DNA of 11,246 nt from Candidatus Jordarchaeales archaeon (GTDB lineage: Archaea; Asgardarchaeota; Jordiarchaeia; Jordiarchaeales; Freyrarchaeaceae): assembly GCA_038858525.1 (NCBI GenBank), contig JAWCFL010000050.1, positions 1-11,246 of the forward strand, written 5' to 3'. Positions 8,058 through 10,163 of this stretch are shown here, piece by piece; the stretch's first letter is position 1; each line of letters starts with the position of its first letter. Below the pieces are notes generated by a model. That model saw only the letters and a program-made list of their open reading frames with translations, was not told the DNA's origin and made no database searches. The translations under genes were made by a program, and so were the position numbers.

Positions 8058-8348
8058 CTATATGATTCTCGGCGGCTTCCACTCTGTGAGGTCTCTTCTC
8101 CTAGTCGTTATGTGCGTTATCTCTGTGTAGCATCGCTTGCAGGGCCTCAGTATCCTTATATCCCCTGTCCCCTTTCGGAGTATTCTTCGCAGAACCCCGG
8201 CGACCTCTTCTAGGAGGTCTTGTTCCAGCTCGAGCTCGAAGACGCTGTACTGGAGCCACCTTCCACCCATGTTCTTAAGGTAATCTCTGACTTCGTCCCT
8301 AACCTCGTCTTCACTTATGTCGTAGACGATGAGCACTTTTTCCTTCAA
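8058..8348 (-). CDS. cas2: CRISPR-associated Cas2
   Basis: VLIVYDISED (conserved YD), WLQYSVFE, and DIRILRPCKRC C-terminus; 96 aa. The TTG start overlaps the upstream stop (TTGA). Confidence 0.96.
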   Translation of the reverse strand: MKEKVLIVYDISEDEVRDEVRDYLKNMGGRWLQYSVFELELEQDLLEEVAGVLRRILRKGTGDIRILRPCKRCYTEITHITTRRRDLTEWKPPRII

Positions 8349-9202
8349 CTAGAAGCCTCCTCGTGGGGTTGGTATCCGGGGGATTTGCCGGAAAAGTATG
8401 CTGCGAGGCTTTTAGCCTGCCTCCTCATCACATCCCTGTAATTTGTTTTCACGTTGAGCCTTGGATGGGTGAACTCTTCCTCCATGCGTTTTTCGAGACA
8501 CGTCAAGACGCTTCTCCTTGACTGTTCAGGTGCCTTCAGGACCGAGAAGTCGGCGGTCTGGTGTAGGAGCTCTATGGCTAGGTCACGTGACAACGCTGGC
8601 TGAACACTATCCGGGTGGAGGAAACCTATCGTGGGCTCCAGTCCCTCAGCCACCAGCATCATTGTTGCCTCTGCCACCACATGCATTCTGGCATACTCCA
8701 CCAGCTCGGCCTTTGCTCCAAGCCTTTCTAGGAGCTCGTTCACCACCTCCATCGCCCTACCCTCAGCCTCCCAAGCCTTCCTCCAATCTCCCGCATCCCT
8801 TCTAAGCTCTGCAAGCCTCGCCCTAGCAGCTTCAACATCGCCCCCACCCATATGCTTCACGTGCTCCAAAAGCCACATCTTGTTCTTTATTGATGCGGAG
8901 AGGAACCTTAAAGCCAAGACGCTCCTGTTCGCGAGAGCCCTAACCTGCCCTAAGAGGGGCGACGGGTCCCTGTCGAGTAGCGGCTCCAGGACAGCTATGT
9001 CACCATCGACCAGCACAGCCAATCTAATTTCGCGCTCAGAAGCCAGCTTGATCGCTCCCGACGAAATGAGCCCCTCTCCCTCCAGCACTATCGCGGACAC
9101 GTCCCTGCTCGCCCACTCTAGCGAGCGATCCTCGACTTTGATCGTGAACCTCTCCTTCCTCTTCCCGAGCCTGAACTTCCTAGTCACCTTGATAACGCTC
9201 AA
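8345..9202 (-). CDS. Degenerate Cas1 paralogue (predicted catalytically impaired pseudo-Cas1), about 285 aa
   Basis: Cas1-like N-terminal domain (DVSAIVLEGEGLISSGAIKLASEREI), plus EAEGRA, GLEPTIGFLH, DLAIELL and QAKSLAAYFSG...YQP. It lacks FxGRxRRPPxDPVNA and DLxEEFR. The ORF track starts at 9322, inside cas1. TTG 9202 with GGTGA (9211-9207) 4 nt upstream is the likelier start. Confidence 0.85.
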   Translation of the reverse strand: MSVIKVTRKFRLGKRKERFTIKVEDRSLEWASRDVSAIVLEGEGLISSGAIKLASEREIRLAVLVDGDIAVLEPLLDRDPSPLLGQVRALANRSVLALRFLSASIKNKMWLLEHVKHMGGGDVEAARARLAELRRDAGDWRKAWEAEGRAMEVVNELLERLGAKAELVEYARMHVVAEATMMLVAEGLEPTIGFLHPDSVQPALSRDLAIELLHQTADFSVLKAPEQSRRSVLTCLEKRMEEEFTHPRLNVKTNYRDVMRRQAKSLAAYFSGKSPGYQPHEEASS

Positions 9203-9206
9203 ACTT

Positions 9207-10163
9207 TCACCTTTCAGAGCTAAACGTCCAAAGGAATGGCTGATAGTCACATTCCCCCCGAAAGTAAGCTGCAAGCCGCAACGCCTGGAGGAATGGCACA
9301 TCGCCCAGCGCCACGTCTCCAATCACCCTCCGCTCCCTTTCACCCAAAACTGCCGCCACCACCCTTCTCCCTCTCTTGTTAAGCAAGACCCCGCCAGCCC
9401 TATAAGTGAAAAGGTTTCTCCCCAGGGACTTAGACATGAAGAGAGGAACAACAGCGGCGTCCACTATGGGCTGCCTGAACTCCTCCTCGAGATCCAAGGC
9501 CAAGCTCGCCCTCTTCCCGTGCAAAGCATGCAGAAAGCCTATACACGGGTTTAGCCCAACCATCCACAAAGCCTGCCTACACTTAGAGGCAAGGACGACG
9601 TAGCCGTAGCTAAGCGCAGCGTTAACCGGGTCCTTAGGCGGCCTTCTAGTCCTCCCAGCAAAACCGTACTCCTCCGGTATAATCTTCGCCAGCGCCTCAA
9701 AGTACCTCCTCGAAGCCTCGCCCTCAAGCGCCATAGGATCAGATATACGAGAAGCAATCCTCTCGATCCCTGAAGCGGCGTCAGCCAAGCCGTCATCCCC
9801 CGACAAGCTACAGAACAACCTTAAAGCCTCAGCCTTGTTAAGCACAGCAGCCCTAGCAAACCTCAAAGCCAACTCATCCCTCCCACGAAGAAAAGCCTCA
9901 ACCTGACCTCTAACAGTCAACATTCTCCTGGGATGCGTGGCGGACGAAAGCTTCCCGGCACCCACAAAAACCACAGGAACATTAACACGCACAGCACGAA
10001 AAAGAAAACCAGTACTAACCGAGCACGCCCCCTCAGCAACCACCACATCCCCCTCACAAAAGCCAACCCGCTCCTCCACCCCCCTATACGAGAAAAACGG
10101 CTCACCACCCCTCACACCGAGAAGAAAACCGCGACCATAAAAACGCTTCAAAGGAAGCAACAA
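9207..10163 (-). CDS. cas1: CRISPR-associated integrase Cas1 with canonical active site
   Basis: MALEGEASRRYF, GFAGRTRRPPKDPVNAALSYGY, GLNPCIGFLH and SLALDLEEEFRQPIVD are all intact. The ORF track starts at 10229, but that extension is low-complexity and overlaps the promoter region. TTG 10163 (after GGTGG) or TTG 10151 is likelier. Confidence 0.95.
   Translation of the reverse strand: MLLPLKRFYGRGFLLGVRGGEPFFSYRGVEERVGFCEGDVVVAEGACSVSTGFLFRAVRVNVPVVFVGAGKLSSATHPRRMLTVRGQVEAFLRGRDELALRFARAAVLNKAEALRLFCSLSGDDGLADAASGIERIASRISDPMALEGEASRRYFEALAKIIPEEYGFAGRTRRPPKDPVNAALSYGYVVLASKCRQALWMVGLNPCIGFLHALHGKRASLALDLEEEFRQPIVDAAVVPLFMSKSLGRNLFTYRAGGVLLNKRGRRVVAAVLGERERRVIGDVALGDVPFLQALRLAAYFRGECDYQPFLWTFSSER

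Follow-up and report, generated by a model that had tools for sequence, protein, structure and literature searches.

The contig JAWCFL010000050.1 of a Candidatus Jordarchaeales archaeon carries two cas1-like genes in tandem ahead of a single cas2. The contig (C50) was analysed over its entire length of 11,246 nucleotides, and this whole stretch is referred to as the window. It belongs to a metagenome-assembled genome (MAG; G000) of 2.09 Mb in 63 contigs, which is 92.7% complete. The first of the two genes, cas1 (9207..10229, minus strand), codes for a catalytically intact Cas1. The second, here termed cas1' (8345..9202, minus strand), starts with TTG; its product, a Cas1 paralogue, is short (285 aa). 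The gene is followed by cas2 (8058..8348, minus strand; PF09827 62.9 bits, TIGR01573 55 bits). We lean towards the view that Cas1' is a non-catalytic structural subunit of a heteromeric integrase which is composed of the active Cas1, Cas1' and Cas2. This is the best reading because cas1' is coupled to cas2 and adjoins cas1, because both Cas1 lineages diverged jointly and catalytic elements were lost in one of them, and because a model of the Cas1:Cas1' complex passed its controls. Since Cas1' represents a rare family which co-evolved with a dedicated Cas1, the role of a non-catalytic subunit appears the most likely one.

The original prediction, made from the DNA letters of the window, had pointed to two cas1-like genes in one operon. 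Both are indeed present on the minus strand and match PF01867 with 182.6 bits (Cas1) and 51.9 bits (Cas1', in two stretches), above the curated cut-off of 22.3 bits. The open reading frame (ORF) of cas1' is free of frameshifts and internal stops. The stop codon of cas1 (TGA, 9209-9207) lies within the sequence GGTGA (9211-9207), the Shine-Dalgarno motif that had been noticed to overlap the cas1 stop, and is positioned 4 bases ahead of the TTG start of cas1' (9202-9200). The stop of cas1' in turn overlaps the start of cas2 (TTGA, 8348-8345), again as originally read. The recorded gene caller places the start of cas1' at GTG 9250 (P0004, 301 aa); the homologues align from TTG 9202. A similar point concerns cas1. 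The longest ORF begins with GTG 10229, the homologues begin near residue 27 (MK.LYGWGYLL), and residues 1-23 are predicted to be disordered with a predicted local distance difference test score (pLDDT) below 50, near 40. The true start probably is TTG 10163 or TTG 10151, and the first 23-26 codons (10152-10229) are probably untranslated.

Cas1' is a remote, yet recognizable Cas1. The identity between Cas1 and Cas1' is 27% over 234 residues. Against the equivalog profile TIGR00287, which has a cut-off of 71.7 bits, Cas1' scores below the threshold with 62.6 bits; the neighbouring Cas1 attains 188 bits. An AlphaFold2 model of Cas1', built with 12 family sequences, has a pLDDT of 92 and a predicted template modelling (TM) score of 0.91. 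The top Foldseek matches of this model are the Cas1 chains 4n06, 8d3p and 7mi5 with TM scores of 0.80-0.85 and E values of 1e-14. Thus, the model confidently predicts a complete two-domain Cas1 fold, i.e., an N-terminal β-domain and a C-terminal helical domain. Feature and shape queries in the ESM Atlas returned 'Cas1' and nothing else. Among the PADLOC matches listed for P0001, P0008, P0011 and P0029 at an E value of 0.001 only generic Cas1 profiles are found, and the same holds for all 12 members at an E value of 10 among the 25 most-shared of 30 families.

The differences reside in the active site. Cas1 possesses E169, H234, D246 and E249 as well as the loop GFAGRTRRPPKDPVN (residues 189-203; codons at 9621..9665, minus strand), as the original prediction of a full set of catalytic motifs had it. 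These four residues are invariant across six partner Cas1 proteins. In Cas1' the corresponding residues are E147, the GFLH motif at 193-196 and D207, followed by I210 and E211. The RxRRPPxDPVN loop has no equivalent in cas1', and an isoleucine occupies the position of a metal-binding acid, three residues after the aspartate (D+3). The codon of Ile210 (8573..8575, minus strand) aligns with D221 of the E. coli Cas1 and with E249 of the neighbouring Cas1. The motifs of both copies, the isoleucine codon and the missing loop had been read correctly from the letters. The distance from the glutamate to GFLH is 46 residues in Cas1' versus 62 in Cas1, and that from the aspartate to the RR motif 22 versus 42. 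The shortenings by 16 and 20 residues, which had been noted earlier, therefore hold; the absolute spans originally given (50/66 and 24/44) were off by a few residues.

The picture becomes clearer when the whole family is examined. One alignment of 59 proteins was used which comprises 12 Cas1' and 47 ordinary Cas1 sequences. The loop RxRxxPxxDxxN, located before the helix which leads to GxLH, is present in all 47 ordinary Cas1 and in not a single one of the 12 Cas1' proteins. The acid at D+3 likewise is present in 47 of 47 ordinary Cas1 and is absent in 11 of 12 Cas1', where I, L, C or M is found instead. Further, the catalytic histidine is absent in five of the 12 Cas1' proteins and the aspartate in one; the ordinary Cas1 have histidine and aspartate without exception (47/47 each) and glutamate in 45 of 47 instances. 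In E. coli Cas1 the exchange of E141, H208, D218 or D221 for alanine abolishes activity (as cited in PMC4046053). Because catalytic elements have been lost family-wide, the function of the Cas1' family appears to be independent of an active site. Could E211 at D+4 serve as a substitute ligand, as had been considered in the original prediction? This is not supported. In those ordinary Cas1 proteins whose D+3 residue is D, position D+4 is taken by L, I, M or V; therefore D+4 is not a metal ligand. Judging from the alignment, E at D+4 is the ancestral second glutamate of the EEF motif which is common to most ordinary Cas1. Taken at the level of sequence, Cas1' probably is catalytically inert.

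The Cas1' family is small. An exhaustive HMMER search with the window's Cas1' against 1.84 billion cluster representatives gave 43 hits. About 12 of these are short proteins of the same kind with 260-302 aa, the remainder are ordinary Cas1. No bacterial dead-Cas1 family ranked above the ordinary Cas1 in this search. The 12 Cas1' clusters are divergent and have intact ORFs. Word-indexed searches, for which the protein and the family alignment served as queries, retrieved hardly anything but the window's own protein and a fragment from a related genome, G004. Searches for related loci with P0001 as a query returned none, and those with P0005 only the G004 record. Within the phylum 400 genomes were sampled; an intact cas1' is present in G000, G016 and G053 and a truncated one in G004. 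The other matches of Cas1' in these genomes are ordinary Cas1 with far lower scores.

The relationships are resolved by a careful maximum-likelihood tree, for which 54 Cas1 proteins were used. The 12 Cas1' proteins form one clade (support 99/99; present in 100% of bootstrap trees), and so do seven ordinary Cas1 which are encoded beside cas1' (99/98; likewise found in 100% of bootstrap trees). In both clades the pairs branch in a congruent order: L011 and L052 group together, then L013 and then L017 join, and L006 is next to L007. As both clades are well supported and the order of the pairs is congruent, one can conclude that the cas1/cas1' pair is ancient and co-inherited. Cas1' branches outside every ordinary Cas1 sampled and is not placed next to its neighbour. 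We had considered a recent duplication in situ and rejected it in view of this position in the tree and of the 27% identity.

Has cas1' been maintained by selection? The ratio of nonsynonymous to synonymous substitution rates (dN/dS) amounts to 0.25-0.29 when cas1' is compared within the close pair L006/L050; their partner cas1 genes give 0.10. Between the window and the G004 fragment it is 0.22 for cas1' and 0.27 for cas2, with dS near saturation. By these ratios cas1' is under purifying selection and is no pseudogene. An intact paralogue instead of a decaying one had been postulated at the outset; the intact ORF, a dN/dS of 0.22-0.29 and the 12 clusters bear this out.

The genome G004, from a sister genus of the same family, is a special case (L054:8001-11185, also L010:1501-2428). 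Here cas1' is cut to a C-terminal ORF of 174 aa. Residues 76-141 are recognizable only across two in-frame TGA codons, and residues 1-75 are gone. Within 8 kilobases upstream of the remnant no partner cas1 was found. What remains is cas2 together with an array, in which 37-nucleotide repeats occur at least 26 times. As far as can be read from these remains, G004 represents the decay of an entire adaptation module, cas1' included.

The gene order seen in the window recurs in related loci. cas2 lies directly 3' of cas1' in eight loci, i.e., in the window, G004, L011, L014, L015, L017, L018 and L052. Seven clusters have an intact cas1 next to cas1', placed upstream in tandem or downstream in convergent orientation. 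The Cas2 of the window is closest to Cas2 proteins linked to cas1' (L052 51%, L011 46%); the identity with a stand-alone Cas2 lineage is 40-43%. By sequence comparison it belongs to the Cas2 lineage which is found behind cas1' in related loci. Three loci possess both lineages, one coupled to cas1' and one stand-alone (L011:3668-3925 and 6049-6321; L052:3715-3972 and 6080-6355; L015:819-1118 and 1134-1406). Together with cas1 and cas1' this amounts to a set of four genes. The window has only a single cas2, of the cas1'-coupled lineage, and hence is not such a four-gene unit.

A physical interaction of the two Cas1 proteins is predicted by modelling. The complex of Cas1 (residues 27-340) and Cas1' has an interface score (ipSAE) of 0.89, the best of three controls has 0.00. 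Of 80 solved complexes 58 attain the mark of this model, and of 110 mismatched pairs two do so. The individual runs share at least 93% of the contacts, and the pLDDT of the partner is at least 89. It is the N-terminal strands along which the predicted contacts are made, which is also the case in Cas1 dimers. An idea which we termed complementary retention, in which the partner Cas1 would have lost its N-terminal domain, was rejected. The model of the partner has the full N-terminal β-domain; merely residues 1-23 are unstructured.

Cas1(4)-Cas2(2) complexes, which are assembled from Cas1 homodimers, are functionally asymmetric. Against this background the following mechanism may be proposed. 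Cas1' would pair with Cas1 via the usual N-terminal β-sheet dimer interface. Each dimer would then consist of one fixed catalytic protomer, Cas1, and one fixed non-catalytic protomer, Cas1'. Such a division between two genes would hard-wire the asymmetry which ordinary Cas1 homodimers adopt in the Cas1(4)-Cas2(2) complex. A non-catalytic protomer in an obligate heterodimer had already been suggested in the original prediction. It is plausible in the light of the catalytic losses, the co-divergent Cas1 clade, the coupling to cas2 and a model which passed its controls; the modelling does not decide in favour of a heterodimer over homodimers.

Several observations weigh against a heteromeric integrase. 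The pass of the Cas1:Cas1' model may reflect mere likeness, because Cas1 homodimers have been solved, and the model as such does not separate the heterodimer from homodimers of Cas1 or of Cas1'. The case for a Cas1/Cas1' integrase is indirect, built on sequence comparison and on models. Weak or altered activity of Cas1' is possible since the window's copy, like its two nearest relatives, keeps three of the four catalytic residues (glutamate, histidine and aspartate). The gene is present in only three or four of the 400 genomes sampled in the phylum, and in the sister genus the truncated cas1' of G004 has no partner cas1 any more. Lastly, in a subclade of P0011, P0032 and P0029 no ordinary cas1 is in view beside cas1', two of the contigs being short.

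The alternatives draw on the same evidence. That Cas1' is a decaying duplicate heading for loss is most improbable and largely refuted by the dN/dS ratios and the tree. The sporadic distribution in the phylum would agree with it, and so would the truncated orthologue in G004 with two in-frame TGA codons, its first 75 residues missing and the partner cas1 absent. However, in G004 decay affected the entire adaptation module and not cas1' alone, and in the window the ORF is intact and dN/dS is low (0.22-0.29). Intact ORFs in 12 divergent clusters, a confidently predicted fold and the co-divergence with the partner clade point in the same direction. Less extreme is the thought that Cas1' has remained active, as an integrase or a nuclease with a modified site, formed by E147, H196, D207 and E211 or another residue, and that it forms its own complex with Cas2, resulting in two parallel integrases. 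The window's copy, P0006 and P0007 do retain glutamate, histidine and aspartate in addition to an acid at D+4, cas1' is directly coupled to cas2, and the two cas2 lineages in several related loci could mean two separate Cas1-Cas2 pairs. Yet several relatives have lost some of these residues. The active-site loop is missing in 12 of 12 proteins, the histidine is lost in five and the acid at D+3 replaced in 11, many ordinary Cas1 have a hydrophobic residue at D+4, i.e., no ligand there, and the window has one cas2 only. We consider two parallel integrases unlikely.

An inactive Cas1 might also be a decoy, which binds Cas1 or Cas2 in a dominant-negative manner and limits the acquisition of spacers and thereby self-targeting. 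It has the same fold, binding to Cas1 through the dimer interface is predicted, it looks catalytically impaired, and a decoy would likewise co-evolve with its target. On the other hand, the stop/start overlap with cas2 and the operon order suggest a fixed stoichiometric, unregulated production, the pairing is stable over a deep divergence, and no regulatory signal was identified. A brake on acquisition, which was the second option in the original prediction, is not called for by the data and in our view rather unlikely. A further possibility takes its cue from a prokaryotic Argonaute (pAgo). Cas1' could be an adaptor which links the integrase to a split Argonaute, e.g., by passing DNA that is bound or generated by Argonaute to Cas1-Cas2 as prespacers. 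A split pAgo is located beside cas1 or cas1' in six clusters, and when the window's genome is included, where the pair is on contig C49 near a CRISPR array, the number is seven of 12. Adjacency alone is a weak argument, though; the window itself has no pAgo, and none is in view for the cas1' of P0016 and P0029. Such an adaptor is quite unlikely. One may go even further and assign cas1, cas1' and cas2 to the adaptation side of a composite system of archaea, with a single CRISPR array common to a split Argonaute and a type III effector; a dead Cas1' adaptor would couple Argonaute-bound DNA to the integrase such that Argonaute feeds acquisition. This we hold to be very unlikely. Compared with all of these, a heteromeric integrase with Cas1' as its non-catalytic subunit remains our preference.

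The Argonaute association deserves a more detailed description. The split pAgo comprises a protein of 375-531 aa, matched by pAgo profiles over their N-terminal part, and a second, MID-PIWI protein with a length of about 400 aa. It adjoins cas1 or cas1' in L011 (1549-2766 and 4856-5998), L052 (1620-2831 and 4903-6030), L050/G053 (L050:1755-4258), L053 (2-556), L013 (2185-3078) and G016 (C97:96-326; L057). In the window's own genome the pair is encoded on contig C49 at 791-2386 and 2340-3593 (L056). There it is flanked by a CRISPR array, with which the contig starts, and by a second type III operon on the other side. The array (G000 C49:1-280) has the repeat GAAACAAAACAAGTCCCGATGAAAAGGGAACGGCAAC, of which the copy most distant from the contig end is degenerate. 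The C49 repeat is a diverged, reverse-complement version of the G004 repeat, i.e., of the array beside the cas1' remnant and cas2. The G004 repeat itself, allowing up to three mismatches, is absent from the window's MAG. Within the window no CRISPR array was found. The C49 array may be served by the adaptation genes of the window; no sequence overlap joins C49 to C50.

How does the locus compare with known systems? The canonical Cas1-Cas2 integrases are the Cas1(4)-Cas2(2) complex of the E. coli type I-E system and the Cas4-Cas1-Cas2 complexes of types I-C and I-G (PDB 8d3p, 7mi5). Both Cas1 proteins of the window share their fold, the gene neighbours cas2 and cas4 are the same, and the predicted N-terminal strand interface is alike. 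The difference is that here two genes would supply the protomers, one of them without the active-site loop and the ligand at D+3. Group 1 of the Cas1-solo proteins from Methanomicrobiales is likewise incomplete in its active-site residues (Makarova et al., 2013; Krupovic et al., 2014, PMC4046053). For these proteins activity as endonucleases is judged improbable, and they are described as not linked to CRISPR (PMC4046053). cas1', in contrast, is situated between cas1 and cas2 and has a patchy distribution.

For the Argonaute context precedents exist. Long-A pAgos of the MpAgo type (MID-OH) are encoded in type III-B CRISPR loci that also contain cas1 and cas2 genes (Kaya et al., 2016; Ryazansky et al., 2018, PMC6299218). 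In these loci Argonaute is placed among cas1, cas2 and cmr genes, as in the related loci here. AfAgo is split and forms a heterodimer with an N-L1-L2 protein (PMC10954474); the split is as here, into a protein for the N-terminal half and a MID-PIWI protein. This likeness to MpAgo and AfAgo concerns the related loci and another contig of the window's genome, not the window itself. In the excerpts consulted, PMC6299218 and PMC10954474 report no two-Cas1 module. Phrase searches of the literature on two, tandem, inactive or divergent cas1 yielded no paper on a tandem dead Cas1; PMC13676074, 10.1101/2025.09.30.679098, PMC12669027 and PMC11742911 were irrelevant or contained a bare mention of gene order.

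If Cas1' is indeed a structural subunit, the division of integrase roles between two genes would reveal the surfaces and residues that are needed for each role. Such a system could show how the orientation or the length of a prespacer is set and would provide a simple system for structural work. To our knowledge, every solved Cas1-Cas2 integrase uses identical Cas1 chains in two roles. The Cas1' family is small, archaeal and associated with thermophiles, and we found no functional study of the cas1/cas1' arrangement in the literature. That a split Argonaute is frequently adjacent suggests a link, open to testing, of two nucleic-acid-guided defence systems.

The remainder of the window is occupied by further CRISPR-associated genes. 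cas4 (10284..10991, plus strand; PF01930 65.1 bits, TIGR00372 89 bits) is divergent from cas1. The genes of a type III-B effector (263..7378, plus strand), identified by NCBIfam and Pfam matches, are cmr5 (263-781), cmr1 (778-2331), cmr6 (2332-3195), cas10/cmr2 (3192-6257) and cmr3 (6251-7378). This cmr operon is convergent with the adaptation genes. Between it and cas2, on the 3' side of the latter, csx3 is located, which codes for the Crn3 ring nuclease (7651..7944, minus strand; PF09620 103.4 bits, TIGR02579 103 bits). Its presence implies signalling by cyclic oligoadenylates; the window has no gene for a CARF effector. Positions 7380-7650 and 10800-11246, the latter extending through the end of cas4 to the contig end, are strongly A/C-rich and of low complexity. 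The C49 array is flanked by a similar A/C-rich tract (G/T-rich on the opposite strand). Such tracts may represent a leader-like region or an intergenic bias throughout the genome.

In related loci proteins of 170-270 aa without a Pfam match recur directly upstream of cas1 or cas1'. Members are L050:4246-5049, L006:1-534, L007:1-516, L014:265-1059, L020:3-545, L052:7000-7566 and L011:7019-7594; the window has none. The N-terminal region of this family resembles a winged helix. In L014 and L018 the proteins encoded 5' of cas1' lack a Pfam match and do not resemble each other. Finally, the window's genome possesses a second ordinary cas1 on contig C33 (G000:C33:3188-4063; L001:1480-2804), which codes for 344 aa and is accompanied by an ORF of 99 aa at the position of cas2 and by small repeats nearby. 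The C33 genes are an independent standard adaptation module.

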